DNA of 64,000 bases from Spirochaetia bacterium (GCA_963677925.2 CAXXYH010000004.1:2496001-2560000); one strand, 5' to 3'; counted from the stretch's first letter, positions 11,901 to 44,290 are shown. Made by a program: numbers and translations. Notes: generated by a model from the letters alone, not told the origin.

Positions 11901-12148
11901 TCCTGACGGGTGAAGATCATGCATTCTGGCGCGAGGAGCGAAAGGTTGAGACAGCCTTTGATCCGGATGCAGATCCAGCACCATATCCAAGGGAGAAGGT
12001 TCCACTGGTGGCAGTTGAAAAGCGGCGGTCGAACTTTACGGAAGTGGAAATGGCATGGACTGAGGCTGTTGCCCTGCGTCAGAGCTCAAGATGTCTGCGC
12101 TGTGACTACGGAAAACCTGTTGCACCTAGGGAGGTTTTACATGATTAA
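8945..12148 (+). CDS. hydB: NuoF/HydB-like FMN/NADH subunit fused to a GltD/NfnL-like FAD/NAD(P)H domain
   Basis: N-terminal 2Fe-2S; GLRGRGGGGF, CNADEGDPGAFMDR, CGKCVPCRVG; then APCQSSCP, CARVCFHTCEEKC, GAGPAG, GGGNAAID and YRR; GGAGG SD before ATG 8945. Confidence 0.92.
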   Translation: MKSENKFIKSVKDLEKIKKDNAEKINFRLLEKADSGDLQQQMKSRDGRYDIALCMGTSCQSSASAEVAEAVDEEIKKLKLEDKVTLVRTGCNGFCAVGPIMVIYPGSILYHGMNAKDVPEIFEEHILNNRTVERLMYHHPVSDAVIPRYMDLPFFSSQELRVLRNKGIIEADSIDEYIARDGYFAAAKALMNMSSDEIISEISESGLRGRGGGGFPTGLKWSFCKKAEGDKKYILCNADEGDPGAFMDRSIIESDPHTVIEGMMIGAKAIGADEGYVYCRAEYPLALKRLETAIAKCREYGLLGENILGTGFNFELHISRGSGAFVCGEETALMNSIEGKRGEPRPRPPFPAVKGLWGKPSVLNNVETYGNIPQIILKGAGWYRETGTEKSPGTKIFALTGNVRNVGLVEVPVGTSLGDLVFDIGGGMQGEKKYKAAQIGGPSGGCIPRSHLSVPLDYESLTELGAIMGSGGLVVMNDETCMVDVAKFFLEFVLEESCGKCVPCRVGIKRMHEILARICEGQGEEGDIERLIELGQTIKDTALCGLGQTAPNPVLSTIQHFRDEYEDHIIHKHCEAGVCPGLVRAPCQSSCPASVDIPGFVALIREKRYEEALKLHREKNPFAVVCARVCFHTCEEKCRRAMLDDPVSIRALKRYLVEQEIIVQLPEVLENKENEAKKIAIVGAGPAGLSCAYFLARLGYKPVIFESENRPGGMLTQAIPSYRLPREELAREIRMIERLGVQINTEKKLGRDFTLNSLKEDGYDAVFVGIGAPKGTLLGIKGDDAEDVVDALSFLKEYNIRGNVKVNNDILVIGGGNAAIDAARTAVRLGAENVTIIYRRKREQMPAYQEEIEEAIVEGVKLIDLTQPVEVVKTADGKVKGLKCLHMELGEFDKQGRRRAVKSDEDYFEIPGDQIITAIGQNVDLSVFKDSEGLKFDEKGFIRADSSTGKTSIDWVFAGGDSSSGPSSVVKAIKGGEVAAVGIDYFLTGEDHAFWREERKVETAFDPDADPAPYPREKVPLVAVEKRRSNFTEVEMAWTEAVALRQSSRCLRCDYGKPVAPREVLHD

Positions 12149-21484: not shown

Positions 21485-21500
21485 TGGTATGATATCTGCT
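21485..21500 (+). promoter_or_regulatory. putative sigma54 (-24/-12) promoter
   Basis: TGGTAT-GATAT-CTGCT, i.e. GG-N10-GC, placing +1 near 21511 at the AGGAGG SD. Confidence 0.55.
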
Positions 21501-21521
21501 TTAAATAAACAGGAGGTTATT

Positions 21522-21839
21522 ATGCCGTTTATTGATGCACAGAACTTTATTAAAGAAATTGCTCCGAATAATGAGATGCGGAGATCCCTTTACGAATTCG
21601 AAAATGCCAGGGCGATTAAAGAGCATATCGAAACACTTGGTTTTAATTTTAAACTTTATGAATTTGAGCAGTCCATCCTTTATCTTAAAACTGAAGCGCC
21701 TAATGAGGAGCAGGCAATCATGCTTGATGAACTTCTATTGTGGTGGAATATGCTTATGTATGACGGCAGTATCACTGAGGAAGTAGATTCCTCTGAGTGT
21801 TCACCGGTTAAATGCGGAACCTGCAGTTCCTGCGGATAG
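21522..21839 (+). CDS. Nif11-like leader-peptide-family protein with Cys-rich tail
   Basis: N-terminus AQNFIKEI..NNEMR..LGFNF..EF resembles Nif11 leaders; C-terminal CSPVKCGTCSSCG; perfect AGGAGG SD. Confidence 0.6.
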   Translation: MPFIDAQNFIKEIAPNNEMRRSLYEFENARAIKEHIETLGFNFKLYEFEQSILYLKTEAPNEEQAIMLDELLLWWNMLMYDGSITEEVDSSECSPVKCGTCSSCG

Positions 21840-21861: not shown

Positions 21862-23100
21862 CTAATACCATAATGTTGAACTTGAATGCTCGTTACGGAA
21901 CTGCTTTGGCGACTGATCGGTAAACTTTTTGAATACTTTTGTAAAATGGCTTTGATCGTAAAAATTAAGTGCTGTTGAAATATCCAGAATTGAAAACTGG
22001 GTAAAAAGAAGCATTCTTTTTGCTTCACTAATCTTCTCCTTCATTATATATTCTGTAACTGAAATTCCAACCTCAGTCTTAAAGGCATTGGAAAGATAGC
22101 TTCCATTAACATCAAGCTGTTCTGAAATTTGGGCAAGAGTCAGTGTTTTATCCATATTTTTTGAAATATAATTCAATGCTCTTGTTACAAGCTTGGAGTA
22201 ATGCATTTTTTTCAGGCTGTTAACCCTGTCTGCAAGGTCGATAAATACTTTATTTGCAAGATCTTCAACATCCTTAATTCTGTTAAGTTCTTCAAGTTTC
22301 TGAATAAAAACATCGGAAATGGCATAGGTTGTTTCAGTTGCCAGACCTCCTTCCATAGCTGCACGGCAGCTGATAGTAATAAAGCATATAACAAGGTTTT
22401 TCCAGCTTCGAAGGGGGTTGTTTTTTGCAAGTACTATATATTCACCGTCAAGGCTGTGAACACTGAGCAACTTTTTTAATTTATCTGTTTCACCATTCTT
22501 GATAAGGCTGTAAAAATGCCGTTCAAAGAAAGAGGAACGATGCAGATAGTTTAGATCCCTGTACTGAATGTTATATTCATTTTCAATTTTTAAATGAAAA
22601 TTCTGCAGCGCACTGTCTGCTGTATTAATTGAATCAAGATCTATTTTTTCTTTATGAAGAATATAGTGAATAAAAATGCCATGCTTAATCAGTTCATGAT
22701 AATTGATAACAGGCAGTAATTTATAATATTTTATTAACAGGGATTTTTCTTTAGCACTCATTCTCCGGTTGATAACTGAATCAATAGACTCATCAATTAC
22801 ATGAGCTATCGAAGGGCCGAGTATCATAAATCCGTTCTGACCATCAGGCAGAGAGACTGTAAGTGCAAGAAAGTTTTCCAGATATTCTGAAGAATAGGTT
22901 CTGGGAAACTCTTCTCTGCTTCTTGAAATGATATCACTGAAAATTGCTTCTCTGTTATCGTTAATCGGATTTTCAATTTCATTGTCAGCAATTTTAAATA
23001 AAGCAAGTCCGTTTTCATCGATTACAAGGATAGGAATCTTAATAACGGAATACAGTATGGCGGAAAAATCCTGAAGTTCGGTATTATTTTGAAGAAGCAT
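21862..23100 (-). CDS. AraC-family transcriptional regulator with N-terminal PocR-like sensor
   Basis: C-terminal YLSNAFKTEVG..FYDQSHFTKVFKKFT..PKQFR; central RSWKNL...RAAMEGG region. Confidence 0.9.
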   Translation of the reverse strand: MLLQNNTELQDFSAILYSVIKIPILVIDENGLALFKIADNEIENPINDNREAIFSDIISRSREEFPRTYSSEYLENFLALTVSLPDGQNGFMILGPSIAHVIDESIDSVINRRMSAKEKSLLIKYYKLLPVINYHELIKHGIFIHYILHKEKIDLDSINTADSALQNFHLKIENEYNIQYRDLNYLHRSSFFERHFYSLIKNGETDKLKKLLSVHSLDGEYIVLAKNNPLRSWKNLVICFITISCRAAMEGGLATETTYAISDVFIQKLEELNRIKDVEDLANKVFIDLADRVNSLKKMHYSKLVTRALNYISKNMDKTLTLAQISEQLDVNGSYLSNAFKTEVGISVTEYIMKEKISEAKRMLLFTQFSILDISTALNFYDQSHFTKVFKKFTDQSPKQFRNEHSSSTLWY

Positions 23101-23206
23101 TGTTTTAACTCCCTATATTCCTGTTTAATTTACCAAAAAACAAAAATACATACAAAAACTGTATATGATTATATATATAATATACCACAGTTATCAGGGG
23201 GTAAAT

Positions 23207-24715
23207 ATGCAACATGCAGATGTTGTTTTTAAAGTAGAAAATCTGAATAAATCATTTACTGCAACTAAAGCGGTAATAGACCTCAGTCTTGATCTATATA
23301 AGGGTGAGATAAGAGGACTGATTGGTGAAAACGGATCAGGAAAATCCACTCTTGCATCAATGATTGCAGGAACTCTAAAACCGGACAGCGGCAGGATGTT
23401 TATCAAAAACAGTGAACCATATTCCCCTGCCAGCATGCTTGATGGAAGAGCTGCCGGAATAAGTATTCTTGTTCAGGAAATGGGAACAATAGACGGGCTC
23501 TCTGTAGCAGAGAATATCTTTTTAGGAAAAGAAAAGAATTTTATCAGGAACGGTTTGATAAAAAAAACAGCAATGCTGTCGGAAGCTAAAAAAGTTTTAT
23601 CTTCAATTGATGCTGATGATATAGACCCGGCCTGTTTAATAGATGAGATATCATTTGAGGATCGAAAACTGCTTGAAGTTGCAGTTTCGCTGAATGATAA
23701 TCCCGATATTCTGATACTTGATGAAACAACGACGGCTCTTTCTCAGAAAGGCCGGGATAAAATATACAGTATTATTGAAAAAATGAGGCGGGATGGAAAG
23801 ACTATAATTCTGATTTCCCATGACCTTTTAGAGCTGAAAGAGCAGTGTGATCGCATAACCGTACTCAGGGATGGAAGTCTCGTAAAAACAATTGAAAAAG
23901 ATGAAATATCCGAAGATACGATGAAGCGGCTCATGATCGGCCGTGATCTTACAGATTCATATTACAGAGCCGACAGCGAATGCAATTACAGCGATGAAGT
24001 TGTCCTTTCGGCAGAAAATATAAGTATGGGTTCAGTTCTTCATAATATCTCATTTGATCTGCACAAGGGTGAAATCCTTGGTATAGGCGGACTCACAGAC
24101 TGCGGAATGCATGAGCTGTGCAAGATAGTTTTCGGAGTCATTAAACCTGACTCGGGAAGTGTAAAAGTAACTAAGACCGGCGATATCATAAAGAATGCAG
24201 AGACGGCAATTCAAAATAAAATCGCATATATTCCGAAAAACAGGGAGCAGGAAGCCCTGCTGTTAAGCGGAAGCATAAAGGACAATGTAGTTCTTATGTC
24301 CTATGATAAAATTCGCAGGGGTGCTTATATTTCCAGAAAAAGCGAAAAGGTCCTTGCTCAGAAACAGGCAGATCTCCTTCGAATCAAAATGGTTTCCATC
24401 GAACAGCTTACAATGGCCTTATCAGGCGGAAACAAGCAGAAAGTAGTAATCGGCAGATGGCTCGCAAATGACTCGGAAATCCTGATTATGGACTGTCCGA
24501 CCAGAGGTATTGATGTCGGTGTAAAGGCTTCAATTTATGAATTGATGGACGGCCTTAAAAAAGAAGGAAAATCCATAATTATGGTATCAGAAGAGCTGCC
24601 TGAACTTATCGGAATGTCGGATCGTATTCTCATTTTAAGAGAAGGCCGTATGTCAGCCGTATTTAATCGAAGCGCCGAATTAAGCGAAGAAAAAATAATT
24701 CATGAGATGATTTGA
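23207..24715 (+). CDS. sugar ABC transporter ATP-binding protein (CUT2, tandem ATPase)
   Basis: GENGSGKST, LSGGNKQKVV and PTRGIDVG motifs. Confidence 0.93.
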   Translation: MQHADVVFKVENLNKSFTATKAVIDLSLDLYKGEIRGLIGENGSGKSTLASMIAGTLKPDSGRMFIKNSEPYSPASMLDGRAAGISILVQEMGTIDGLSVAENIFLGKEKNFIRNGLIKKTAMLSEAKKVLSSIDADDIDPACLIDEISFEDRKLLEVAVSLNDNPDILILDETTTALSQKGRDKIYSIIEKMRRDGKTIILISHDLLELKEQCDRITVLRDGSLVKTIEKDEISEDTMKRLMIGRDLTDSYYRADSECNYSDEVVLSAENISMGSVLHNISFDLHKGEILGIGGLTDCGMHELCKIVFGVIKPDSGSVKVTKTGDIIKNAETAIQNKIAYIPKNREQEALLLSGSIKDNVVLMSYDKIRRGAYISRKSEKVLAQKQADLLRIKMVSIEQLTMALSGGNKQKVVIGRWLANDSEILIMDCPTRGIDVGVKASIYELMDGLKKEGKSIIMVSEELPELIGMSDRILILREGRMSAVFNRSAELSEEKIIHEMI

Positions 24716-24725
24716 GGTTTGCAGA

Positions 24726-25685
24726 ATGAAATTTAATACCACACAGTTGAAGATCAGAATAAAAAATTCCAATTTCAGAATTCAGAGCATCACCTCTTTT
24801 TTAGGACTTGCCTTTGTTGTAATTTTATTTGCAATTCTTACTCACGGGCTCAGTCTCAGACCTGCAAATATTCAGCGGATACTGCTGCAGTCGATCCTGT
24901 TGATAATCGGAGGAGCAGGGGTTTCATTTACTATTGCACACGGGCATCTTGATTTCGCCATAGGGGGAATTCTGGGAATGTCGGTGGTGCTCGGCGGACT
25001 TGCCGGAAGCATACATCCGCTTCTTACAATTCCTGTAATAATTCTTGCTGCAGTTCTTGGTGAATTACTTGTTGTTTCGACTTCAATATTTCTTGCAATT
25101 CCTTCTTTTATAGTATCACTTGCCATGATGTTTATAACCAAGGGTGTTCTTGTCGGTATTACGCAGACAGTTTCTGTAAGTCTTGATCCGGTGTTCAACA
25201 GCTGGGATTCACAGATATTTTACTTCGTAGTACTGATAGCTGTACTTATAGCGGCTGTTTTTCTGATGGAATTTACAAAAATCGGAAAGTTCAATAAAGC
25301 AATCGGGGCAAATTACACCGCTGCAGAGACTACGGGCATCCCGGTAAACAAGTACAAGGTTCTTGCTTTCATTGTCGCCGGAGCTGCCGTCGGATTGAGT
25401 GCATTTCTTAATTTTGTCAGGGCGGGCGGAGTTTCCGCAACAACAGGTTCCGGATATGAGATTAATGTTCTTATTTCACTTGTCCTCGGCGGCACCTCTC
25501 TGACCGGAGGAACAAGTGTGAAAATAAGGGGCGCTGTAATTGGCTGCCTTATTCTGATGGTGCTTGAGAACGGACTGGTCATACTGGGTGTTCAGCCTGC
25601 AATGATGGGTCTGATAAAGGGTTTGCTGTTTCTTGTAGCAATTGCCCTGGCTTACGATAGAAAATCGGGACAGGTTATTTCCTGA
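24726..25685 (+). CDS. sugar ABC transporter permease
   Basis: Hydrophobic; KAIGAN..AAETTGIP; LGGTSLTGG. Confidence 0.9.
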   Translation: MKFNTTQLKIRIKNSNFRIQSITSFLGLAFVVILFAILTHGLSLRPANIQRILLQSILLIIGGAGVSFTIAHGHLDFAIGGILGMSVVLGGLAGSIHPLLTIPVIILAAVLGELLVVSTSIFLAIPSFIVSLAMMFITKGVLVGITQTVSVSLDPVFNSWDSQIFYFVVLIAVLIAAVFLMEFTKIGKFNKAIGANYTAAETTGIPVNKYKVLAFIVAGAAVGLSAFLNFVRAGGVSATTGSGYEINVLISLVLGGTSLTGGTSVKIRGAVIGCLILMVLENGLVILGVQPAMMGLIKGLLFLVAIALAYDRKSGQVIS

Positions 25686-25734
25686 TTTCTATATATATAC
25701 CGTGCTTGTGCACAAAATTAAATGGAGGAAAAGG

Positions 25735-26910
25735 ATGAAGATTCAGAAAAAAATCAGCGTAATGCTTCTTGCCGCATTGATTGCTGTAAGTGTCCTTTCA
25801 GGATGTCAGAAAGACCAGTCTTCAGATAAGAGCGCTTCAGCTGAAACTGAAAATGCTGCTGTTGCCAGTGCTCCTGAAATGAAGAAAATTGGTGTAGTAA
25901 TTTGGGGAACCGAGGATGGTCTTGGTTCAGCTGTAAAGAGAATTCTTGAGTATGCCGGTGAGGCTCTCAACATCGAAGTTCGTTTTAAAACCGGTGACTT
26001 TGATACTGAAGCCCAGGTAAAGGCAATGGAGAATTTTGTTGCTGCTGATATGGATGGTATTATCTGTGTGCCTCTTATTGACAGCGGTATACCTAAAATC
26101 TACAAAGTATGTGAAGATGCAAAGATTCCCTATATCCAGGCATTCAGAAGAATTGATGATCCCGCAAATGCTGCTCAGCTTGATAAGGCTCCATACTTTC
26201 TCGGTTACACAGTAGAAGATGAGGAAAAGGCCGGATACGATCTTCTTAAAATACTTGCCGATGCAGGCGGTTCAACAGTTGGATGTATTTACAATGCACC
26301 TGGTTCAAGCTTTGCAGACAGACGAAAGGCCGGTATTGAAAAAGGTCTCTCAGAAAATATAGCAGATAAAATTGCCGAGTTTACTCTTCCGCTTTCACCA
26401 ACAAGTGAAGCCTGGGTTGAAGGAACAAACAACTTCATCAACACCTATCCGGAGCTCAACGGTATCATCATGACATCCGGATCAGTCGGAGGCTCAGAAG
26501 GCGCTATCGCTACAATTATCAGAAATAAGGCAGAAGGTAAAGTTAAAATGGTTACCTTTGATCAGCCCGCTAATGCCAATGAAGCATTTGAGAAAGGCAT
26601 CCTTGTAGGTCTTGCCTCAGGTATATATACAGATGCTCTGTGGTCATTCATTGTTATGGCAAATGAGCTTCAGGGTAATCCGCTGTCTGATAAACCAATC
26701 AAAATTGATTCAAACTACATCTACATTACAAGCATTGAAGATGCACAGAACTACAGCAAGTATGTTGATGGAGAGGGTATTTATCCTTATACAAAGGAAG
26801 AAATCCAGCAGATGACAAAATTCTATAATCCTGATTTTACTGCAGAAGACCTGCAGAGAGTTGCATCAGAATGGACTATGGAAAATGTAATCTCAAAAGC
26901 TCAGAAATAA
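25735..26910 (+). CDS. sugar ABC transporter substrate-binding lipoprotein
   Basis: Lipobox LSGC; RbsB-like features; GGAGG SD before ATG 25735. Confidence 0.88.
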   Translation: MKIQKKISVMLLAALIAVSVLSGCQKDQSSDKSASAETENAAVASAPEMKKIGVVIWGTEDGLGSAVKRILEYAGEALNIEVRFKTGDFDTEAQVKAMENFVAADMDGIICVPLIDSGIPKIYKVCEDAKIPYIQAFRRIDDPANAAQLDKAPYFLGYTVEDEEKAGYDLLKILADAGGSTVGCIYNAPGSSFADRRKAGIEKGLSENIADKIAEFTLPLSPTSEAWVEGTNNFINTYPELNGIIMTSGSVGGSEGAIATIIRNKAEGKVKMVTFDQPANANEAFEKGILVGLASGIYTDALWSFIVMANELQGNPLSDKPIKIDSNYIYITSIEDAQNYSKYVDGEGIYPYTKEEIQQMTKFYNPDFTAEDLQRVASEWTMENVISKAQK

Positions 26911-26921
26911 ATTAAACCAGT

Positions 26922-26949
26922 CCGGGAGGGCTTTGCCTTCCCGGTTTTT
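26922..26949 (+). terminator. intra-operon stem-loop / leaky terminator after the SBP gene
   Basis: CCGGGAGGGC-TTT-GCCTTCCCGG followed by T5. Confidence 0.65.
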
Positions 26950-26961
26950 CAGGACGGTAAC

Positions 26962-27939
26962 ATGGACAGGTTCTTTCACTTTGGAAAACGAGTATTATTA
27001 AGCATAGCAATCCCTGCAATTTTATTTATCATCGGTCTTATAGTATTTCCGGATCGGGTAGACTTTGATCTGCTCAGGGTTTTATTGATTCAGGCAATTC
27101 CGCCGGCCATTCTTGCATGGGGTGTATGTTTTGAGATTAAGGTTAAAATATGGGATTTTTCCGTCGGTTCAGTGGTGCTCATATCAGGTATTCTGGCTGG
27201 ACAGCTTGCCAATATCCTGAACCTCGGAGTTGCAGGTATAGTGATTTTAAGCCCGTTAATTGGTATGACAGCAGGGCTTCTCACCGGAACAATTTTCAGA
27301 TTGGTAAAAATTCCCTCTATTATAGTATCTGTAGGAATGATGCTCGTTTTTGAAAGTATCAGCGGTTTAATGTTCAAGGGCCAGGGGGTTCTTGTTTCAA
27401 CTGATGTCTATGCGCTTGCAAGTTTTCCAATAAATGTAATCATCGGTATTATCGCTTTTTCCATTGCGTACGTTCTATATAATTTCCGCAGTTTCGGTTA
27501 TCACGTTAAAGCCGTCGGAAATGGAATTTCAATAGCCAGACAGAGCGGCATCAATGTCGACCGGGTCAGGGTGATGTGTTTTGCAACTACAGGCCTTTTT
27601 GCCGGAATGTTCGCATTCATGCAGCTTGGCGGTGCCGGAGTAATTAAAGCCCAGAGCAATATGACTACAATGGGGCTGGTCGTAGATGCAATCATCTGTG
27701 CCTGTATTGCCCTGTCTCTTGAAAAAGTTTCAAATCTTATAATCGGTGTATACATCGGAAGCGTTGTTACCCAGATCATCAAGATAACAGTTCTTATAAG
27801 TGGTTTTCCAAGTATGTTCCAGCAGGTTGTAATCGCCTTCTTTCTGCTTGTGTTTATGGGTATCAGCTCAAGAGCAGACTACCTTCAGAGGTTTTTCGGC
27901 AGGTTCAAATTCGGTTCTGCACAGCAGGCGGTAAAGTAG
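26962..27939 (+). CDS. sugar ABC transporter permease
   Basis: DFSVGS and KAVGNG..IARQSGIN motifs; multiple TM segments. Confidence 0.9.
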   Translation: MDRFFHFGKRVLLSIAIPAILFIIGLIVFPDRVDFDLLRVLLIQAIPPAILAWGVCFEIKVKIWDFSVGSVVLISGILAGQLANILNLGVAGIVILSPLIGMTAGLLTGTIFRLVKIPSIIVSVGMMLVFESISGLMFKGQGVLVSTDVYALASFPINVIIGIIAFSIAYVLYNFRSFGYHVKAVGNGISIARQSGINVDRVRVMCFATTGLFAGMFAFMQLGGAGVIKAQSNMTTMGLVVDAIICACIALSLEKVSNLIIGVYIGSVVTQIIKITVLISGFPSMFQQVVIAFFLLVFMGISSRADYLQRFFGRFKFGSAQQAVK

Positions 27940-27942
27940 AGT

Positions 27943-28758
27943 ATGAAAACAGATAAGAAATTTCTTTATGAGACTACTCTTGAGTATCTTGAAGCTATCA
28001 CAAGTAATGATGTCTCAAGACTTCCTCTTGCTGCTGAGTGCAGGATGACTGTAAACGGGAAGAATACCAGCCCGGGAAACAGCCCTGTATGGGGAAGTCC
28101 CAGAAGAATACCCTACCGCCAGAGTTTTGTTGACCCTGTTACAGGATCATCTGTTTTTTTTGGAATTATTACAAACACTACAACCACACATGCAGGTTTC
28201 GGTGAGAAATGGTGGCTGTATACAGTAAGACTTAAAACAGAATCAGGACTGATCACCGAGATTGAAGAAATTATTAATGATAATACTTTTGCACACTACG
28301 AAAGAAAGCCATGGGAGATGACCCCGAATCAGGCTTTCAGCCATATACTTCCGGAAGACGAACGTCTTGATCGTGAGAGTCTTATTACTGTTGTAGAAAG
28401 CTACTGGAATGCTGTTGAAAGAAGTGTAGACGGTTTCAGTGTACCATTTCATCCGGATGCTGTCAGATATGAGTGCGGCACCATTACAACCGACGCAAAG
28501 AATTTTCCCAACAGCGCACGCGGAGATTTTATTAAGGCTGAAAACGCCGGATGGAGGTGGAGGGTACTTAACCGGAGATATCCTGTAATTGATACCGATA
28601 GGGGTGTGGTAGTCTCCTACGGTGAACTGAGCATGACGGACAGCACAAATCCGGATTTTCTTCCCTGTATAGTTACCGAGGTATTTAAAATCGAATCAGG
28701 CTTGATTAAGGAGCTTAATGCGTTCTTCTATGCCGGCGAAAGTGTTTCTAACTGGTAG
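27943..28758 (+). CDS. uncharacterised protein with two tandem NTF2/SnoaL-like domains (DUF8021-like)
   Basis: Internal duplication: YLEAI..LPLA..R...RLKTESGLITEIE versus YWNAV..VPFH..R...VFKIESGLIKELN. Confidence 0.65.
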   Translation: MKTDKKFLYETTLEYLEAITSNDVSRLPLAAECRMTVNGKNTSPGNSPVWGSPRRIPYRQSFVDPVTGSSVFFGIITNTTTTHAGFGEKWWLYTVRLKTESGLITEIEEIINDNTFAHYERKPWEMTPNQAFSHILPEDERLDRESLITVVESYWNAVERSVDGFSVPFHPDAVRYECGTITTDAKNFPNSARGDFIKAENAGWRWRVLNRRYPVIDTDRGVVVSYGELSMTDSTNPDFLPCIVTEVFKIESGLIKELNAFFYAGESVSNW

Positions 28759-28772
28759 AACCGGAGATGGAA

Positions 28773-31046
28773 ATGGAAATTGATATAAAAAAAATTCTCG
28801 GTGCAATGACCACCGAGGATAAAGCTGCTATTTGTTCCGGTCAGGATTTTTTTACCACTAAAGCTTTAGAGGAATATGATATACCTTCAATTCTTCTCTC
28901 TGACGGACCCCATGGTCTTCGCAAGCAGAGTGAGAATGCTGATTTTCTGGGAATTAACGAAAGTATTAAATCGACCTGTTTTCCTACAGAAGCAACACTG
29001 GCATGTTCATTTGATCGGGAACTGATTCATGAAGTCGGGGCAGCTCTGGGAGCCGAATGCCAGGCTGAGGGTGTGGGCGTACTTCTGGGGCCTGCCGTGA
29101 ATATAAAACGCTCTCCGCTGTGCGGAAGGAATTTTGAATATTTTTCTGAAGACCCCTATTTAACATCTGAACTGGCTACCGCCTATATAGAAGGGCTTCA
29201 ATCTCAGGGTGTAGGCGCCTGTATCAAGCATTTTGCTGCAAACAATCAGGAAGATTTCAGGCTGTCGGTTGATGTGAAAATTGATGAAAGAACCCTAAGA
29301 GAGATTTATCTTTCCAGTTTTGAGAAACCTGTAAAAGAAGCCAGGCCCTGGTCGGTGATGTGTGCATACAATAAACTCAACGGCGTATACTGTTCCGAGA
29401 ATAAGATTCTTCTCACTGATATTCTTAGACAACAATGGGGTTTTGAAGGCTTTGTTGTATCCGACTGGGGAGCTGTAGCACACAGGGTAGAAGGCATAAT
29501 GGCGGGACTGAATCTTGAAATGCCTCCCAGCGGAAAGTTAAATGATGCAAAAATTCTGAAAGCTCTTGATAGTGGAGAACTTGATCCAGTTTTGCTTGAT
29601 AAGTCTGTTGAAGAGCTTTTAAAAATAGTATTCAAATCTGCAGAGAACAGAAAAACCGGTATTGCAGCCGATCTTGAAAAACACCATGAACTTGCCAAGC
29701 GTGCCGCATCCGAGAGTATGGTTCTGTTAAAAAATGAAGATTCTATACTCCCTCTTGATAATAAACGTTCAATTGCTGTTATCGGTGAAATGGCAATGTC
29801 ACCGAGGTTTCAGGGCGCGGGAAGCTCTCATGTAAACCCTGCCTACCGTGAGAACATATATAAAATGATGCTTGAGAAGTCGGCAGATTTAAGTTTTTCG
29901 GCTGGATATAAAATCAACAGCGATTTGACAGATGACTCCCTGCTGCAGAAGGCGGTCTCTACAGCAGAAGCAGCGGAAACTGCAGTTATATTTGCAGGGC
30001 TTATTGAAGAATATGAATCAGAAGGCTATGACCGATCACATATGAGACTGCCTGACAGCCACATTGAATTAATTGAAGCGGTTTCTGCGGTTCAGCCCAA
30101 TACAGTAGTTGTTCTTGCAAACGGTGCCCCGGTTGAAATGCCCTGGGCAGCAAGGGTAAAGGGGCTGCTGGAAGGATATCTTGGCGGTCAGGCTCTTGGC
30201 GGCGCTATAGCAGATATTCTTTTCGGCGATGTGAACCCCTGCGGAAAGCTGGCTGAAACTTTTCCCGAGAAACTGAGTCATAATCCGTCATACTGCAATT
30301 TCCCGGGCTCAGGTAAAACCGTGGAGTACAGAGAAGGACTTTTTATCGGTTACAGGTATTATGATAAGAAAGGAATAAAACCACTCTGGCCCTTCGGCTA
30401 CGGCCTTTCCTACACCAGCTTTGAATATAGTTCTCTGGAACTGGATAAGAATCAAATGACCGATAAAGACTTTCTTTCTCTAAGTTTTAAGGTTAAAAAT
30501 ACAGGAACTGTACAGGGAAAAGAAATTGTTCAGCTTTATGTTGGTAAAAACTCGGCAAGAATAATCAGAGCTCCGCGGGAATTAAAAGGTTTTCAAAAAA
30601 TAAGTCTTAAGCCGGGTGAACAAAAAACTGTCAGATTTAAATTGGAGAAAAGAGCATTTGCATATTACGATGAAGAACTGTCCGACTGGTCAGTTGAAGG
30701 CGGTGAATATCAAATTATGGCCGCATCATCATCTGCAGATATCAGACTGACAGGTACAGTCCAAATTAAAAATACTGAAAGAAAGAAGACTGCCTATACC
30801 CGTTTTTCAACTATCGGAGAAATCATGGATGATCCGGAGCAGCAGACTGTCCTGGCAGAATTAATTGACTACCTAAGCGTTGAAGGTGCCTTACTTTACA
30901 ATACAAGCGACAACAAAAAAATGGGCGATGGAATGGTTAGAGGAATGCCTCTGTGTACCCTGTATTCCTATTCTAATGCCTGTTTTGATGAAGAAAAGCT
31001 TCAGTACATACTAAAACAACTCAACAAAACTTCCAGGGAGAACTGA
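28773..31046 (+). CDS. GH3 beta-glucosidase with Fn3-like domain
   Basis: SDGPHGLR, GRNFEYFSEDP, CIKHFAAN, VSDW nucleophile, YREGLFIGYRYY and ELKGFQK motifs. Confidence 0.95.
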   Translation: MEIDIKKILGAMTTEDKAAICSGQDFFTTKALEEYDIPSILLSDGPHGLRKQSENADFLGINESIKSTCFPTEATLACSFDRELIHEVGAALGAECQAEGVGVLLGPAVNIKRSPLCGRNFEYFSEDPYLTSELATAYIEGLQSQGVGACIKHFAANNQEDFRLSVDVKIDERTLREIYLSSFEKPVKEARPWSVMCAYNKLNGVYCSENKILLTDILRQQWGFEGFVVSDWGAVAHRVEGIMAGLNLEMPPSGKLNDAKILKALDSGELDPVLLDKSVEELLKIVFKSAENRKTGIAADLEKHHELAKRAASESMVLLKNEDSILPLDNKRSIAVIGEMAMSPRFQGAGSSHVNPAYRENIYKMMLEKSADLSFSAGYKINSDLTDDSLLQKAVSTAEAAETAVIFAGLIEEYESEGYDRSHMRLPDSHIELIEAVSAVQPNTVVVLANGAPVEMPWAARVKGLLEGYLGGQALGGAIADILFGDVNPCGKLAETFPEKLSHNPSYCNFPGSGKTVEYREGLFIGYRYYDKKGIKPLWPFGYGLSYTSFEYSSLELDKNQMTDKDFLSLSFKVKNTGTVQGKEIVQLYVGKNSARIIRAPRELKGFQKISLKPGEQKTVRFKLEKRAFAYYDEELSDWSVEGGEYQIMAASSSADIRLTGTVQIKNTERKKTAYTRFSTIGEIMDDPEQQTVLAELIDYLSVEGALLYNTSDNKKMGDGMVRGMPLCTLYSYSNACFDEEKLQYILKQLNKTSREN

Positions 31047-31048
31047 GA

Positions 31049-32983
31049 ATGAAGAATTACGATAATCTGTTAAAACCTATAAAAGTGAACAGCCTGTTTT
31101 TAAAAAACAGAATTATAGCAGCTCCTATGGGAGGAGGATTTGTAGAACGTCATAAAATAGAGAACATTGCAGCCAAGGCTCGCGGCGGAGCTGCAGTAGT
31201 TGTGCTTGGAAGCTGTAATGTTGATAATGACCGCTCCTTCATCGCCCCCGGCTGGCCCGGACTTTACGAACCCTATATGGAAATTTATATGGATCAGCTG
31301 AATATTATCCATATGTACGGGGCGAAGGCTTCGATAGAGCTGATGCATGCAGGGCTTTGGGCCATCACTGATCATGTGGGTAAAAACCCGCTCGGACCGG
31401 TTACTATGAAAAGAACAATCGGCAAGGATGCTGATGATGCCCAGATAGACGGAATGACTCTGGAAGATATGAACAGGGTTGCAGACAGCTTCGCCGAATC
31501 TGCCTTAAGTGCAAAAAAACTGGGCTTTGACATCTGTATGCTTCACTTTGCCCATGGCTGGCTGCCAGCGCAGTTTCTTTCTCCAAAATTTAATAAAAGG
31601 ACCGATGAATTCGGCGGAAGTTTTGAAAACCGGATACGTTTTCCGATGATGATAGTGGACAGAGTCCGTAAAGCGGTCGGTCCTGATTATCCTATTGACA
31701 TGAGAATCAGCGGTGATGAACGCTGTGAAGATGGAATGGATCCGGATGAAGTGATACGCTTTGTTCAGCAGATACAGAGTAAAATCGATATGATACATGT
31801 CTCATCAGGAATCGATAAGTATTTCGATCTGACTACATGGGTCGAATCTCCGCAGTTATACCCTCATCTGATAAACGTTGAACTTGCTGCAGCTATGAAG
31901 AAGGCGGTGAAAATTCCTGTCACTGTTGTCGGCGGTATCACAATGCCTGATGAAGCTGAGAAAATACTGGCAGATGGAAAGGCAGACTTTATAGCAATGG
32001 CCAGACCGCTGCTTGCAGATCCGGATTGGCCGGTAAAAGTAAAAACCGGAAAGGTTGATGATATTGTTCCCTGTCTAAGATGTACTTCATGCTATCATGT
32101 TGCAACAGAAGGGTTCAGCCTGGGCTGTTCGGTTAACCCGGTATTCTGCCGTGAGGACAGGATCAGACTTGATATGCAGAAGCCCGTTCCTCCTAAAAAA
32201 ATTGTAATTGTCGGAGGCGGACCTGCCGGACTTAAAGCCGCCCTGACTGCGTCGGAATACGGTCACAGTGTAATACTTCTGGAAAAAGCTTCCAAACTAG
32301 GCGGGCTTGCAAATCTTGCAGATTTTGAGGAACGAAAGATAGATTTAAGAAACTACAAGACCTACCTTGTAAATAAAGTTTTGCATTCCGGTATAGATAT
32401 CAGGCTGAATACCGAGGCTACGCCGGATATGGTCAAAGAACTGAAACCGGAAGTACTTATAGTTGGGGTTGGTTCTGTTCCATCACTTGCTCCCATAAAG
32501 GGTATTGACCATCCTGCTGTTGTTCAGGCTCTCGATGTATATGAAAATATGGATGACCTCGGGGCCAGGGTTGCTGTCATAGGCGGCGGAGAAATCGGAA
32601 GTGAGCTTGGACTCTCTATTGCCGAAACAGGCAGACAGACAACTATTATTGAAATGACGGGTAAGCTTGCACCCTCCGGAAATATTTTATACAGAGAGGG
32701 GCTCAAAATTATTATGGATGCAACCCCCGGACTTAATATTCTCTTAAACACTTCCTGTCTTGAGATCACAGAAGCAGGTTTGCGGATTGCCGGCAAGGAC
32801 GGGAAAGAAAGTTTTGTTGAAGCTGATTCTATTGTTATTGCTACAGGTATGAAACCCCGAAAAGAGCTTGCAGATTCATTCTACGGCATAGCAGAGGACG
32901 TAAGAATCATAGGCGACTGCATGCGGCCCAGAAAGATTGACAGCGCAGTATACGAAGGGTATTTTGCCGTAACTTCAATCTAA
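31049..32983 (+). CDS. old-yellow-enzyme / NADH:flavin oxidoreductase (BaiCD/FadH-like ene-reductase)
   Basis: LKNRIIAAPM, HFAHGW..QFLSP..NKRTDEFGGS, Fe-S motif CLRCTSC..C, GGGPAG and GGGEIG. Confidence 0.92.
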   Translation: MKNYDNLLKPIKVNSLFLKNRIIAAPMGGGFVERHKIENIAAKARGGAAVVVLGSCNVDNDRSFIAPGWPGLYEPYMEIYMDQLNIIHMYGAKASIELMHAGLWAITDHVGKNPLGPVTMKRTIGKDADDAQIDGMTLEDMNRVADSFAESALSAKKLGFDICMLHFAHGWLPAQFLSPKFNKRTDEFGGSFENRIRFPMMIVDRVRKAVGPDYPIDMRISGDERCEDGMDPDEVIRFVQQIQSKIDMIHVSSGIDKYFDLTTWVESPQLYPHLINVELAAAMKKAVKIPVTVVGGITMPDEAEKILADGKADFIAMARPLLADPDWPVKVKTGKVDDIVPCLRCTSCYHVATEGFSLGCSVNPVFCREDRIRLDMQKPVPPKKIVIVGGGPAGLKAALTASEYGHSVILLEKASKLGGLANLADFEERKIDLRNYKTYLVNKVLHSGIDIRLNTEATPDMVKELKPEVLIVGVGSVPSLAPIKGIDHPAVVQALDVYENMDDLGARVAVIGGGEIGSELGLSIAETGRQTTIIEMTGKLAPSGNILYREGLKIIMDATPGLNILLNTSCLEITEAGLRIAGKDGKESFVEADSIVIATGMKPRKELADSFYGIAEDVRIIGDCMRPRKIDSAVYEGYFAVTSI

Positions 32984-32993
32984 GGAGAATAAG

Positions 32994-33800
32994 ATGGCAA
33001 CTGCAGTAATAAAAGAGTTGTCCAGGGAAGAGGTGAAAGCGCTCTGTAAAAATACAGGGGCAGCAGGAAAAAGCGGGATAGGTGTCTCCATGCGCAGTTC
33101 CTTTTCAGAGAAGCTTAACGGTAAAAAAATTGAACTGGTATTTGATGATATACCTGAGCTCCTTTATGAAATAACAAATTCGAATGAATTATTCTGGTCC
33201 GGTGATAATTTCAGCGGATCAGAATACTGCCAGATACTCGAACTTGGTACGGATGGTGAACTCTTTCTTGTTAACCATCTACGTGCCGGAACCTTTCCTC
33301 TTGAAAATATCAGCCTTGTTCTCGACTTTAAAACAGGATTATGTACTATAGTTCGTTCCAGACTTGGTGATGCACCAAGACCCCGCGATGTAGAAAGCAC
33401 CTTTCATTTCGGGTATATTAAAAATATCAACCCGCAAAGCAAAAACAGACACCGTTATACGGATGAGCTTGTTCATAAAATTATTGACTGGCATTATGAT
33501 AATGACAATATTTTTATTGTGAAGCATCTGTATGTAAGCAGAGAGCATATGGTTTACTACCTTTGCGAATCTGACGGATCTGACAAAGGCCTTGTTGAAG
33601 CTGCTGAGTGTTCATATATAAAGATAAGGGATGATATTTATATAATGAGCTGGCTTGAGAAGGGGCATCAGGGGATGCAGGGAACAGTTCTGATGGATTT
33701 AAAATCCATGCATGATGTAGGAAGCTTCTTCGGAATAAGCATTAAAAACGTACTGGACAGCTATACCTTTGAAGCCATGGGTGAGTTCTCAACCCTCTAG
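32994..33800 (+). CDS. MoaF-like (N- and C-domain) protein
   Basis: Two beta-barrel-like halves; RHRYTDELV..W.Y, KIRDDIYIMSWLE and DLKSMHDVGSFFG patterns. Confidence 0.65.
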   Translation: MATAVIKELSREEVKALCKNTGAAGKSGIGVSMRSSFSEKLNGKKIELVFDDIPELLYEITNSNELFWSGDNFSGSEYCQILELGTDGELFLVNHLRAGTFPLENISLVLDFKTGLCTIVRSRLGDAPRPRDVESTFHFGYIKNINPQSKNRHRYTDELVHKIIDWHYDNDNIFIVKHLYVSREHMVYYLCESDGSDKGLVEAAECSYIKIRDDIYIMSWLEKGHQGMQGTVLMDLKSMHDVGSFFGISIKNVLDSYTFEAMGEFSTL

Positions 33801-33815
33801 AAATCAGAACCATAT

Positions 33816-33842
33816 AAAAAAACCCTTACAAAGTAAGGGTTT
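33816..33842. terminator. terminator between the catabolic operon and tRNA-Leu
   Basis: AAACCCTTAC-AAA-GTAAGGGTTT; U-run on the minus strand downstream of the tRNA. Confidence 0.75.
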
Positions 33843-33847
33843 AAAAT

Positions 33848-33932
33848 TACCGAAGACGAGACTTGAACTCGTACAGCTTATACAGCCGGGGGATTTTAAG
33901 TCCCCTGTGTCTACCTATTCCACCACTTCGGC
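33848..33932 (-). tRNA. tRNA-Leu(TAA)
   Basis: Reverse complement GCCGAAGTGGTGGAATAGGTAGACACAGGGGACTTAAAATCCCC...GTTCAAGTCTCGTCTTCGGTA; long variable arm; CCA not encoded. Confidence 0.96.
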
Positions 33933-33975
33933 AATTGTGAAGTTATACTAACCAATCAATACGTATTGGTCAAGC

Positions 33976-38373: not shown

Positions 38374-38402
38374 TTGACAATTCTGTCAAGGAGTGTTAGT
38401 GT
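38374..38402 (+). promoter_or_regulatory. sigma70 promoter with an inverted repeat over the -35
   Basis: TTGACA-N17-TAGTGT with TGn; TTGACA-N4-TGTCAA palindrome at 38374-38389. Confidence 0.6.
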
Positions 38403-38436
38403 TTCTATGCATAAGAACGTAAAAAAGGAGAATCTA

Positions 38437-39432
38437 ATGAAAAAAACATTAGCTGTTTTAATGCTTGCACTTATACTTGCTGTTTCATATGTTTCCGCCG
38501 GCGGAAGTCAGGAAGCTAAAGATGATACAGCCGCAGCCGAAGCTGTACCGTTTAAAATCGGTATATCAAAGATCGTTGCACATCCCGCTCTTGATGCCCT
38601 TGAACAGGGAATTATGGAAGTAGTTTCAGAAAAATATCCTGATACTGTATTCGATCTGCAGAATGCAAACGGTGAAATGTCTACTGCTTCATCAATTGCT
38701 CAGAAGTTTAAGTCAGAGAAGGTTGATCTTGCAGTCGGAATTGCCACACCAACCGCTATCGCTCTTGCACAGGCTATCACCGACGTTCCGGTAATTTTCT
38801 CTGCAGTGACCGACCCGGTTGATGCCGGCCTGATTACAAGCACAGCAAAGGGTGAGGGCAATGTTACCGGTATTTCAGACATGACACCGGTAAAGGAGCA
38901 GATTGAACTGCTGGCTTCTTTAATTGATCTCAAAACTCTCGGACATGTTTATACAAACAGTGAAGCAAATGCGGTAAGGCTTGCAGAAATTGCCGAGCAG
39001 GCATGTGACGAGCTTGGAATCAAGTTCATCGGTACCGGAGTAAACAACTCTGCAGAGGTAAAACAGGCTGCTCAGACACTTGCCGGTAAGGTTGATGCTT
39101 TCTATGTAAGTACAGACAACACAGTAGTATCTGCCATCGCAGCACTGATCGATGTTGCTGAAAAAGCAGAAATTCCAATTTGTTCAGCCGATACAACATC
39201 AGCAGAAAACGGCGGAGTACTTATCTCATGGGGATTTGATTACTACAAGATGGGTAAGGCTTCAGGACGGATGGTTCTTGATATTCTTGAGGGTGCTGAT
39301 CCTGCAGCAATACCGACACTTTTTATGACTGATCCTACTGATATCGATCTGCTTATCGATACAAAAGTTGCCGATGCGCTCGGAATAAATATTCCAGCTG
39401 ATTTACTTTCAAAGGCAAGAACAGTACAATAG
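38437..39432 (+). CDS. ABC transporter substrate-binding protein (COG2984, putative aromatic amino acid)
   Basis: IVAHPALD, NANGE, IATPTA, FSAVTDPV, NVTGISD and TDNTVVS motifs; AAGGAG SD. Confidence 0.9.
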   Translation: MKKTLAVLMLALILAVSYVSAGGSQEAKDDTAAAEAVPFKIGISKIVAHPALDALEQGIMEVVSEKYPDTVFDLQNANGEMSTASSIAQKFKSEKVDLAVGIATPTAIALAQAITDVPVIFSAVTDPVDAGLITSTAKGEGNVTGISDMTPVKEQIELLASLIDLKTLGHVYTNSEANAVRLAEIAEQACDELGIKFIGTGVNNSAEVKQAAQTLAGKVDAFYVSTDNTVVSAIAALIDVAEKAEIPICSADTTSAENGGVLISWGFDYYKMGKASGRMVLDILEGADPAAIPTLFMTDPTDIDLLIDTKVADALGINIPADLLSKARTVQ

Positions 39433-39436
39433 GCGC

Positions 39437-40336
39437 ATGATCGAAGGCATATTTGTAGAGGGCCTGATTTACGGAATCACGGCCCTCGGTGTTTTTATTA
39501 CATTCCGGATTCTCGACTTTCCGGATCTTACCGTAGACGGAACTTTTCCCTTAGGCGCCGCTGTAATGGCTATTTCACTGACCAGCGGAATGAACATGGG
39601 GGCCGCACTACTACTTGCATTCATAGCAGGTTTTGCGGCCGGCGGAGTAACTGCAATAATTCATAACAAACTCGGCGTTCCCGGCCTGCTTGCCGGTATT
39701 CTGACCATGACTATGCTCTGGTCTATCAATATACGGGTCCTGGGTGACCGCGCTAATCTTTCACTGCTTAGAGTCGATACCATTCTTACAAAGGTAAGAG
39801 ACCTCCTTGCTCCCGCCATTGGTGATACCGCTGCGGTTCTTGTTTTTGTATTTCTGGTAGTACTGATAATCAAGATACTTCTTGATCTGTTTTTTCATAC
39901 CGACCTTGGGCTTACCATGGGAGCCATGGGTGATAATGAACAGATGATAATAAGCCAGGGAGTTAATCCCGAGATGGTGAAAATTATCGGTGTGGGCATT
40001 TCCAACGGGCTCGTGGCTATTTCAGGTGCATTTGCGGCTCAGTATCAGGGCTTTGCCGATGTAAACCTGGGGCAGGGTATTGTTGTTTCCGGCCTTGCAA
40101 TGGTAATGCTCGGAGAGTTTCTGTTTTCATCGAATAAAATCGGATTTCTTACAATGCGTGTAATTCTAGGCGCAATTCTGTATAAGGCGATTATGTACGC
40201 CGGCCGTTATTACGGATACTACATCAAATTGACGCCGAATGACCTTAAGCTGCTTACAGGTATTCTTATTATTGCTTCGCTTGTTGTAAGCAAATACCGC
40301 ACAAAGAAATTAATCTTCCGGAGGCCGGCTAAATGA
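39437..40336 (+). CDS. ABC transporter permease (COG4120)
   Basis: FRILDFPDLTVDGTF, LLAGIL and QYQGFADV motifs. Confidence 0.9.
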   Translation: MIEGIFVEGLIYGITALGVFITFRILDFPDLTVDGTFPLGAAVMAISLTSGMNMGAALLLAFIAGFAAGGVTAIIHNKLGVPGLLAGILTMTMLWSINIRVLGDRANLSLLRVDTILTKVRDLLAPAIGDTAAVLVFVFLVVLIIKILLDLFFHTDLGLTMGAMGDNEQMIISQGVNPEMVKIIGVGISNGLVAISGAFAAQYQGFADVNLGQGIVVSGLAMVMLGEFLFSSNKIGFLTMRVILGAILYKAIMYAGRYYGYYIKLTPNDLKLLTGILIIASLVVSKYRTKKLIFRRPAK

Positions 40337-41124
40337 TTCAACTTGAGAAGGTTAATATAATTTTCGGTGAAGGAACCCCGAACAGAAACCACGTCCTCAA
40401 GGATGTGGACCTGCGCATTAAGAAGGGTGATTTTATTACGATAATCGGGTCCAACGGTGCCGGAAAAACAACACTGTTTAATGTAATTTCAGGAAACAAG
40501 AAACCCACCTCTGGAAGGGTTTCGATTAATGGAGCAGACGTAACCAATCATCCTGAGTATAAACGTGCTGCATATATAGGGCGGATTTTTCAGGATCCGC
40601 TGCTTGGAACTGCCGGAAATATGAGCATAGTAGACAACATGCTTGTTACCGGTAAAAAAGGCTTTAAGGGGCTTAAAATAAGTCTTAACAAGGCAAAAAA
40701 GAAATTCTTTCAGCAGCAGCTTGTAAAGCTTGATATGGAGCTTGAATCAAGGCTTGATGATAATGTAGGAATGCTTTCCGGCGGACAGCGACAGGCCCTC
40801 ACACTGCTTATGATGTCTTTATCAAAGCCGGAGCTTGTTCTTCTTGATGAACACACTGCAGCTCTAGATCCGCGAAACGCAGCAAAGGTAATGGAACTCA
40901 CCACACGCTTTATAGAAGAGCAGGGATTTACTGTTATGATGATTACTCATAACATGCAGCATGCAATTGACTACGGCAACCGTCTGATAATGATGGATGA
41001 GGGCCGTATAATTATTGATATTGAAGGCGATGAAAAGAAATCGCTGACAGTAGAGAAGCTGGTGAAAAAGTTTCATGATATCCGTCAGAAAGATTTTACC
41101 AGCGATGAAGCTCTCCTTTCTTAA
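40333..41124 (+). CDS. ABC transporter ATP-binding protein (COG1101)
   Basis: GSNGAGKT, LSGGQRQAL and LLDEHTAALDP motifs. Confidence 0.92.
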   Translation: MIQLEKVNIIFGEGTPNRNHVLKDVDLRIKKGDFITIIGSNGAGKTTLFNVISGNKKPTSGRVSINGADVTNHPEYKRAAYIGRIFQDPLLGTAGNMSIVDNMLVTGKKGFKGLKISLNKAKKKFFQQQLVKLDMELESRLDDNVGMLSGGQRQALTLLMMSLSKPELVLLDEHTAALDPRNAAKVMELTTRFIEEQGFTVMMITHNMQHAIDYGNRLIMMDEGRIIIDIEGDEKKSLTVEKLVKKFHDIRQKDFTSDEALLS

Positions 41125-41187
41125 GGAGAGCCTTTTTCTCTGTAAAAGTATTCCGTTTCAGAGGTATTTTCAGACAGGAATAAAGTA

Positions 41188-44227: not shown

Positions 44228-44238
44228 AAAACCATTAA

Positions 44239-44248: not shown

Positions 44249-44290
44249 AAAATAATTTGTCAATAAAATATTGGTTAAATATGCATTTTT

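Follow-up and report, generated by a model that had tools for sequence, protein, structure and literature searches.

The stretch of DNA analyzed here, 64,000 nt from a Spirochaetia bacterium and referred to below as the window, carries at positions 21862-33800 (counted from its first letter) a cluster of nine genes that appears to serve the uptake and conversion of a small molecule. One gene lies on the minus strand and encodes an AraC-family regulator. The other eight run divergently on the plus strand in the order ATPase, permease 1, substrate-binding protein (SBP), permease 2, DUF8021 protein, GH3 glycosidase, Fe-S flavoenzyme and MoaF-like protein. With starts backed by a ribosome-binding site (RBS), namely 23207 for the ATPase and the ATG at 25735 with its good RBS for the SBP, the gaps between the plus-strand genes are 10, 49, 51, 3, 8, 2 and 10 nt. 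An earlier note on this DNA had described a tightly spaced eight-gene operon encoding a CUT2-type ATP-binding cassette (ABC) importer, a duplicated NTF2-like protein, a GH3 enzyme lacking a signal peptide, an Fe-S flavoenzyme of the Old Yellow Enzyme (OYE) family and a MoaF-like barrel related in fold to phenolic acid decarboxylase (PAD). Domain and fold searches bore out each of these assignments, and the open reading frames (ORFs), strands and spacing also stand. The gene order needs one correction, in that the SBP gene sits between both permease genes. Whether the eight genes form one operon is less certain, because the SBP gene is followed by a terminator-like hairpin (26922-26944, +) that may split transcription. 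This hairpin has 10 pairs, 8 of them G-C, followed by a T-run, and was called as a consensus match only. A hairpin of this strength 3' of the SBP gene means that transcription within the operon may be attenuated; judged from its sequence, it is a possible internal attenuator and may let the SBP be expressed more strongly than the genes downstream of it. The cluster is closed by another terminator-like hairpin with a T-run at 33820-33842, a palindrome called on the minus strand.

The importer has the full complement of CUT2 components. Its ATPase (23207-24715, +) consists of two fused ABC domains, detected as ABC_tran in two stretches; the ORF opens at 23165 and was 516 aa long in the Pfam scan, and the better RBS precedes the ATG at 23207. 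Permease 1 (319 aa; 24726-25685, +) and permease 2 (325 aa; 26962-27939, +) match BPD_transp_2 with E-values of 2e-26 and 2e-17, respectively. The SBP (391 aa; 25735-26910, +) is a lipoprotein with an L-S-G-C lipobox in its translation and a Peripla_BP_4 domain. Fused two-domain ATPases, BPD_transp_2 permeases and Peripla_BP_4 SBPs are likewise found in the known CUT2 importers (Rbs, Ara, Als, Ytf, Mgl and Lsr). Unlike those systems, the window importer scores far under the cut-off of each equivalog model; the AraG, AlsA, RbsA and XylG models of NCBIfam, for instance, give the ATPase 380-388 bits, each under its cut-off. The SBP is a divergent member of its family with a C-terminal extension, and no solved SBP matches it at more than 36.6 bits (best 5dte, YtfQ, with the rhizopine SBP also among the nearest). 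The divergent regulator (412 aa; 21862-23100, −) has a C-terminal double helix-turn-helix, with Pfam HTH_AraC/HTH_18 at residues 326-403. Its best NCBIfam model is TIGR04094 at 168 bits, under the cut-off of 200, and its N-terminal sensor part of about 290 aa has no assigned family.

Directly downstream of permease 2 lies the gene for a cytoplasmic protein of 271 aa (27943-28758, +) that belongs to PF26061, a family named DUF8021 in the Atlas. This label comes from precomputed Pfam annotation, which assigns it to the window protein and to all 45 of its matches; our local Pfam copy lacks the model and gave no match even at E 10. A search against PDB sequences was also empty at E up to 10. The AlphaFold2 model built on a 36-sequence alignment (pLDDT 94.3, pTM 0.92) contains two units, each a helix plus a curved sheet. 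Foldseek found 85 matches in the PDB at E ≤ 1e-3, and NTF2-like folds account for all matches listed, so both the model and the fold search point to two NTF2/SnoaL-like cones, as had been proposed. Over the full length, the best matches (E 6e-9 to 3e-6) are Lsd19 and MonBI-MonBII, which are polyether epoxide hydrolase-cyclases made of tandem or paired NTF2 units. Full-length TM scores of just 0.33-0.37 indicate that the orientation of the cones differs from that in Lsd19 and MonBI-MonBII. Taken singly, the cones resemble SnoaL2, AclR, NsrQ and PhzA/B, with TMt of about 0.5-0.6. Like the polyether enzymes, the DUF8021 protein has two NTF2 cones per unit and holds conserved acidic, Tyr and Arg residues inside both cones. 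It differs from them in sequence (11-15% identity), in full-length superposition (root-mean-square deviation of about 17 Å) and in setting, which is catabolism in an anaerobe instead of polyether biosynthesis and does not imply epoxide chemistry. Across the 36 sequences, 12 positions are invariant, including D64, R96, E106 and E108 in cone 1 and Y154, R175, E177 and R212 in cone 2. Such a set of invariant ionisable residues would fit an acid-base enzyme better than a passive binder.

At the other end of the cluster, the MoaF-like protein (268 aa; 32994-33800, +) contains both MoaF domains, N (PF10703) and C (PF17409), each scoring 50.4 bits against gathering cut-offs of 23.3 and 22.1. Its AlphaFold2 model (pLDDT 94.6) has two eight-stranded beta barrels of the calycin or PAD type. 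By Foldseek, the model resembles 4q51, the only solved MoaF protein, at TM 0.76-0.78 (E 2e-14), and the protein is therefore a MoaF member by both Pfam and fold. The predicted barrels also superpose individually on PAD structures, more weakly (TMt about 0.5, E 2e-3 to 1.5e-2, 11-15% identity). No PAD domain was found by Pfam, and the likeness to PAD is one of fold alone. The MoaF family is small, with 204 representatives at E ≤ 1e-3 among 1.84 billion. When 20 longer MoaF proteins were scanned, most turned out to be double MoaF units, and the fusions among them joined MoaF to NmrA-like NAD-binding domains (two proteins), a PNPOx-like flavin domain (one) and cell-surface modules (two).

The two genes between those for the DUF8021 and MoaF-like proteins encode more familiar enzymes. 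The GH3 glycosidase (759 aa; 28767-31046, +) is of the BglB type and comprises GH3 N, GH3 C and Fn3-like domains in Pfam. It aligns over residues 3-754 with 7ms2, a thermostable beta-glucosidase B, at 948 bits, and carries a GFVVSDW motif at residue 228, in which SDW presumably contains the nucleophile Asp. Its best NCBIfam model is exo-alpha-1,6-L-arabinopyranosidase (815 bits, cut-off 1300). There is no hydrophobic stretch at its N-terminus, in line with a cytoplasmic enzyme lacking a signal peptide.

The flavoenzyme (644 aa; 31049-32983, +) combines an OYE/FMN TIM barrel, a four-Cys motif and an FAD/NAD(P) domain, and Pfam places Oxidored_FMN together with Pyr_redox_2 in the one chain. The cysteines lie between the domains, in CLRCTSCYHVATEGFSLGC (CX2CX2CX11C) from residue 342, and identical spacing is found in 119 of the 120 closest homologues. 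With the H-x-x-H pair, the four Cys residues and both nucleotide domains all kept, the protein is a complete Fe-S flavoenzyme of the OYE family. The available text of a 2024 review gives the Cys motif of these enzymes as CX2CX3CX11-13C (PMC11574389), compared to which the second spacer here is one residue shorter. The same text describes the electron path of the family as running from NAD(P)H via FAD and [4Fe-4S] to FMN (PMC11574389). The nearest solved relatives are 2-naphthoyl-CoA reductase (NCR; 6qkg, 274 bits) and 2,4-dienoyl-CoA reductase (DCR; 1ps9, 222 bits), neither of which has the H-x-x-H pair that the window enzyme keeps. Among NCBIfam models BaiCD is the best, at 405 bits against a cut-off of 825, and BilR-long gives 361 bits against 750; because both scores are under the cut-off, the enzyme is neither a BaiCD nor a BilR.

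One feature of its active site had attracted attention before. Classical OYEs have an HxxHGY motif whose Tyr is the catalytic proton donor, and the window enzyme has HFAHGW at residues 166-171, with Trp171 instead of Tyr; this Trp also aligns with the Tyr of NCR and of DCR. The substitution reported in the earlier note is thus present, but it is not special to the cluster. All 120 nearest homologues, down to 44% identity and including proteins from Paenibacillus, Gibbsiella and Amphibacillus, share H-x-[AG]-H-G-W, so the Trp marks a subfamily rather than this locus. Elsewhere among Trp-type enzymes, four paralogues of about 920 aa (P0107, P0116, P0131 and P0145; 45-48% identity) carry dienelactone-hydrolase or alpha/beta-hydrolase domains according to the precomputed Pfam column. 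These reductase-hydrolase fusions hint at enone-lactone or ester substrates in the wider subfamily and suggest nothing firm for the window protein.

If these genes work together, they should be found together in other genomes, and the earlier note had named their co-occurrence as a check. A scan of genome contigs with an alignment of 26 closer DUF8021 sequences returned 23 loci, and one of these (L001, a Spirochaetaceae metagenome-assembled genome (MAG) contig of 8673 bases) contains the cluster. Five of its genes are contiguous on one strand and encode the SBP (76% identity to the window), permease 2 (62%), DUF8021 (64%), the flavoenzyme (64%) and GH3 (50%). The contig begins inside the cluster, which places the ATPase, permease 1 and the regulator outside the comparison. 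Its gene order is rearranged relative to the window, with the flavoenzyme preceding GH3, and retention of the set despite the rearrangement argues for selection on the set itself. The genes therefore do occur together elsewhere.

Metagenomic orthologues extend this picture through a proxy, in which the hits of three protein searches were paired by identical longest-contig size. By this measure, 11 of 21 DUF8021 proteins (55-69% identity) match one of 26 flavoenzyme orthologues (57-75%) over 10 distinct sizes, and 7 of 12 MoaF-like proteins (51-60%) match a DUF8021 or flavoenzyme orthologue. Four sizes (15830, 6728, 108923 and 11782) are common to the three lists. Contig sizes of five and six digits are unlikely to agree by chance, but such agreement does not prove adjacency. 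Identity in each family also drops sharply beyond the orthologue group, from 55% to at most 40% for DUF8021, from 57% to at most 53% for the flavoenzyme and from 51% to at most 37% for MoaF, as fits a single co-inherited orthologue set. Among the flavoenzyme orthologues, one (64%) bears the label Flexilinea sp., and the gene set is conserved across phyla. The set is rare and co-inherited, and its occurrence in two or more phyla points to horizontal transfer. Two of the DUF8021 proteins, P0018 (61%) and P0022 (55%), have the same longest-contig value, 21905, as the flavoenzyme orthologue P0079, which suggests a variant of the cluster with two DUF8021 paralogues.

Taken together, these observations lead us to propose that the locus is an AraC-controlled catabolic cluster for one imported small molecule, probably a small plant beta-glycoside whose aglycone has an activated C=C bond, a proposal that we put somewhat short of an even chance. 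Import of the compound would fall to the lipoprotein SBP with the CUT2 ABC system, and the cytoplasmic BglB-type GH3 would take off the sugar. The Fe-S flavoenzyme would then pass electrons from NAD(P)H through FAD and [4Fe-4S] to FMN and reduce a C=C bond in conjugation with a carbonyl, which its His166/His169 pair would hold. Before or after this reduction, the DUF8021 protein and the MoaF-like double barrel would perform cofactor-free acid-base steps, with isomerisation, ring opening, hydration and decarboxylation as candidates. A scheme of import, deglycosylation, C=C reduction and a cofactor-free step is plausible on the domain content. The order of the steps and the chemistry of the DUF8021 and MoaF-like proteins are what we infer from that content, and the substrate class is proposed on the same footing, with a plant glycoside being a guess. 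Reduction of the aglycone may act as an electron sink, as the earlier note envisaged, and energy or detoxification could equally be the purpose. The earlier note also took the absence of a sugar kinase as a sign that aglycone chemistry is central. There is indeed no kinase domain among the nine cluster proteins in Pfam or NCBIfam searches, but the argument drawn from this is weak because released glucose can use housekeeping enzymes.

Several findings weigh against a glycoside pathway of this kind. The hairpin at 26922-26944 leaves room for two transcription units, and the 1.1 kb after the L001 GH3 gene contains a convergent DUF2804 gene and no MoaF, so MoaF is not an obligatory neighbour. The metagenomic linkage rests on equal longest-contig sizes and not on gene order directly seen. 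GH3 itself is a generic BglB-type enzyme and the least conserved of the shared parts (50% to L001), which may make it an auxiliary enzyme. The ligands of solved CUT2 SBPs are monosaccharide-sized, and the window SBP is too distant from these proteins for its ligand to be assigned; our analyses do not separate an aryl-glycoside from a sugar-derived substrate. Finally, 22 of the 23 loci hold DUF8021 at 33-40% identity in other contexts.

These contexts are varied, including bicupins, TonB receptors, SnoaL_4 proteins, short-chain dehydrogenases (SDRs) and oligopeptide ABC genes. In three loci from Oscillospiraceae and Treponema, the DUF8021 gene (38-40% identity) is followed directly by a bicupin gene encoding about 320-326 aa with no match in NCBIfam (L002, 1248-3195; L008, 4423-6333; L009, 371-2209). 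The bicupin partners gave one weak PDB match (E 0.009), and seven neighbour proteins had no NCBIfam match; neither search provided a functional lead. Genes for a CUT2-type ATPase and permease directly precede DUF8021 in L008 and L022, and L008, from Treponema sp. TIM-1, also has a CUT2-type SBP (Peripla_BP_4) ahead of its DUF8021-bicupin pair. A distant MoaF-like gene (25% identity) lies near DUF8021 in L002, and distant Fe-S flavoenzymes (31-33%) are encoded within 8 kb of it in L003 and L004. The MAGs with bicupin, CUT2 or flavoenzyme settings are labelled Oscillospiraceae, Clostridiales and Treponema. Copies from Steroidobacteraceae and other Gammaproteobacteria MAGs have N-terminal extensions resembling signal peptides, and their neighbours are TonB-dependent receptors, short-chain dehydrogenases and proteins of the SnoaL_4 and DUF4440 types. 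Such signal-peptide-like forms occur in the Steroidobacteraceae loci L016, L017, L018 and L023, often duplicated (L017, L018), next to genes for FecR, TonB-dependent receptors and SnoaL_4 or DUF4440 proteins. Given this variety of settings, DUF8021 is a general catabolic module that is not tied to glycosidases or OYEs.

The repeated link between DUF8021 and CUT2 importers keeps alive an alternative in which DUF8021 acts on an imported sugar-like molecule. The importer would bring in a monosaccharide-like, carbocyclic or very small glycosidic compound, DUF8021 and the flavoenzyme would act on the carbohydrate skeleton itself, perhaps on an enone formed by dehydration, and GH3 would be an accessory. 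CUT2 architecture is what this explanation predicts, and the nearest models (AraG, AlsA and RbsA) and nearest SBPs (rhizopine and YtfQ) are compatible with it, as are the CUT2-type ATPase and permease genes directly upstream of DUF8021 in L008 and L022. It would also account for conservation between the window and L001 being highest in the SBP (76%) and lowest in GH3 (50%). Both full instances of the cluster nevertheless retain a GH3 gene, and none of the cluster proteins is a kinase, isomerase, aldolase or dehydrogenase that would admit a sugar to central metabolism. The MoaF barrels, moreover, resemble phenolic-acid enzymes, and the generic H-x-x-H site of the OYE does not favour sugars. We regard a sugar- or cyclitol-centred cluster as unlikely, though it deserves serious weight.

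Two further explanations were considered. The cluster could consist of unrelated adjacent modules, one an importer with a beta-glucosidase for plain beta-glucosides or cellodextrins and the other a redox module of DUF8021, flavoenzyme and MoaF. The hairpin 3' of the SBP gene would be a natural boundary for such a division, GH3 is of a generic BglB type, and DUF8021 and the OYE are the pair that shares contig sizes most often (10). Against this, the genes are again contiguous in L001 with GH3 after the OYE, an order that puts the redox genes between the transporter and the glycosidase, and gaps of 2-10 nt link permease 2, DUF8021, GH3, the OYE and MoaF in the window. Cellodextrin uptake, besides, is normally through CUT1 and not CUT2 importers. 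We consider this division improbable. Steroidal or triterpenoid saponins are another conceivable substrate, which GH3 would desugar, with the NTF2 protein acting like a ketosteroid isomerase or a dehydratase of the BaiE type and the flavoenzyme working on a 3-oxo-delta-4 ring in the manner of BaiCD or OsrB. We take the NTF2 fold to be that of ketosteroid isomerase and BaiE, BaiCD is the best NCBIfam model of the flavoenzyme (405 bits), and the arabinopyranosidase model that GH3 matches best (815 bits) represents a family that presumably acts on ginsenosides. Fe-S flavoenzymes of gut clostridia do reduce steroid hormones, according to the portion of PMC11482826 available to us. The BaiCD score is, however, under half of the cut-off of 825, and DUF8021 has no sequence match to solved NTF2 enzymes (PDB, E up to 10). 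The cluster proteins include no hydroxysteroid dehydrogenase that would provide the 3-oxo group (Pfam, NCBIfam), and large amphiphiles are unlikely to enter through a CUT2 importer. For these last two reasons we rank saponins low, as more improbable still than the two-module arrangement. The remaining probability we keep for explanations that we have not thought of.

A reductive route for a small beta-glycoside, the reading that we favour, has precedents in what is known of anaerobes. The flavonoid set of Eubacterium ramulus, Flavonifractor and Catenibacillus comprises an O-glycosidase, a flavone reductase, chalcone isomerase, a reductase that cleaves flavanones/flavanonols, and phloretin hydrolase. 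By analogy, the window cluster may follow the same logic of deglycosylation, reduction of an activated C=C bond and action of a cofactor-free isomerase or C-C hydrolase. It departs from that set in that neither sequence nor fold was found to link DUF8021 or MoaF to chalcone isomerase or phloretin hydrolase; the fold matches were confined to NTF2 enzymes and PAD. For intracellular GH3 enzymes of Lachnospiraceae, a role in deglycosylating polyphenols has been suggested, in the accessible part of PMC11170127. Fe-S flavoenzymes of anaerobes catalyse key reductions of bile acids, bilirubin, isoflavones and steroid hormones. Most clades and gene clusters of these enzymes lack an assigned substrate (PMC7371122; PMC11574389). 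The window enzyme shares the OYE barrel, four-Cys motif and FAD/NAD domain of those in known clusters (BaiCD/BaiH of bai, DZNR of the equol pathway, BilR and OsrA/B). It is also embedded, like those catalogued in the available text of PMC7371122, in what looks like a substrate-specific set with a transporter in an anaerobe. It differs from them in its partners (DUF8021, MoaF and GH3) and in having a CUT2 ABC importer, compared to the major facilitator superfamily transporter that the same text presents as typical (PMC7371122).

How much of this has been described before can be judged from the literature searched. In Clostridia, Pascal Andreu et al. counted 849 Fe-S-flavoenzyme gene cluster families, for 80 of which action on saccharides is predicted, and most clades are functionally unknown (main text of PMC7371122); the part of the 2024 review available to us likewise states that the vast majority of Fe-S flavoenzymes have unknown function (PMC11574389). 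The main text of PMC7371122 contains no MoaF, NTF2, SnoaL, ABC, sugar or glycos- wording; its supplementary cluster tables may list this architecture. Our searches returned no publication on DUF8021/PF26061, none joining MoaF with Old Yellow Enzyme, none that brings an NTF2 protein together with a flavoenzyme and a beta-glucosidase in an anaerobic setting and, among the papers listed, none assigning a function to MoaF. The cluster therefore matches no characterised pathway in the literature searched, an outcome on which the earlier note had made its proposal depend. The enzyme class and its logic are known, and what is undescribed in that literature is the conserved partnership with two families that lack characterised members.

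A bolder version of the glycoside proposal can be formulated, in which DUF8021 and MoaF are new cofactor-independent enzymes that, with the Trp-type ene-reductase and GH3, form an undescribed reductive pathway for plant glycosides, horizontally spread among anaerobes. Its substrates might be, for example, coumarin, hydroxycinnamate, flavonoid or iridoid glycosides, and its spread would cover anaerobic Bacillota, Spirochaetota and possibly Chloroflexota. We hold this version to be possible but doubtful. If true, it would add a new substrate class for Fe-S flavoenzymes; the gain would be modest if the locus proved to be an operon for plain beta-glucosides whose reductase serves detoxification. 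Solving the cluster would give both DUF8021 and MoaF their first function, and the case is tractable because the SBP and the AraC sensor are two independent handles on the substrate. Until that substrate is known, nothing here would surprise a specialist.

The surroundings of the cluster are ordinary chromosome, of the kind carried by a fermentative Gram-positive anaerobe. Upstream lie genes for a histidine kinase and a chemoreceptor and an [FeFe]-hydrogenase set, and downstream are ThiF-like, TatD and UvrD genes. A tRNA-Leu(taa) gene (33847-33933, −) stands just beyond the hairpin that closes the cluster. No att-like direct repeat of this tRNA was found among the 19 short repeat families in the window, the gene annotation of the window shows no integrase near the cluster, and no edge of a genomic island was found in the window. 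A 116-aa ORF (21489-21839, +) with no Pfam match lies between the genes for the histidine kinase and the AraC regulator.

Other parts of the window hold further gene sets. The [FeFe]-hydrogenase set (8431-13907, +) encodes a thioredoxin-like 2Fe-2S protein, a 1080-aa fusion and a 665-aa hydrogenase large subunit. The fusion joins NuoF-like FMN and 4Fe-4S domains to GltD-like Fer4_20 and Pyr_redox_2 domains, which is unusual in HydABC-type sets. Nearer the start of the window lies a polyol or sugar cluster (947-5904, −), with a divergent LacI gene alongside. The cluster encodes an aldo/keto reductase bearing a 4Fe-4S dicluster domain at its C-terminus, an alcohol dehydrogenase of the Zn-dependent type and a kinase of the FGGY family. 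A similar aldo/keto reductase-ferredoxin fusion is encoded near a DUF8021 gene in L007. Downstream of the cluster, a second ABC importer (38374-42456, +) consists of an ABC_sub_bind SBP, a BPD_transp_2 permease and an ATPase and is followed by a response-regulator-GGDEF protein. The adjoining region (42476-48553, −) encodes a 595-aa DUF2239-amidase fusion and then three proteins of surface type that carry Chlamydia-PMP repeats and Big_2 and DUF285 domains.

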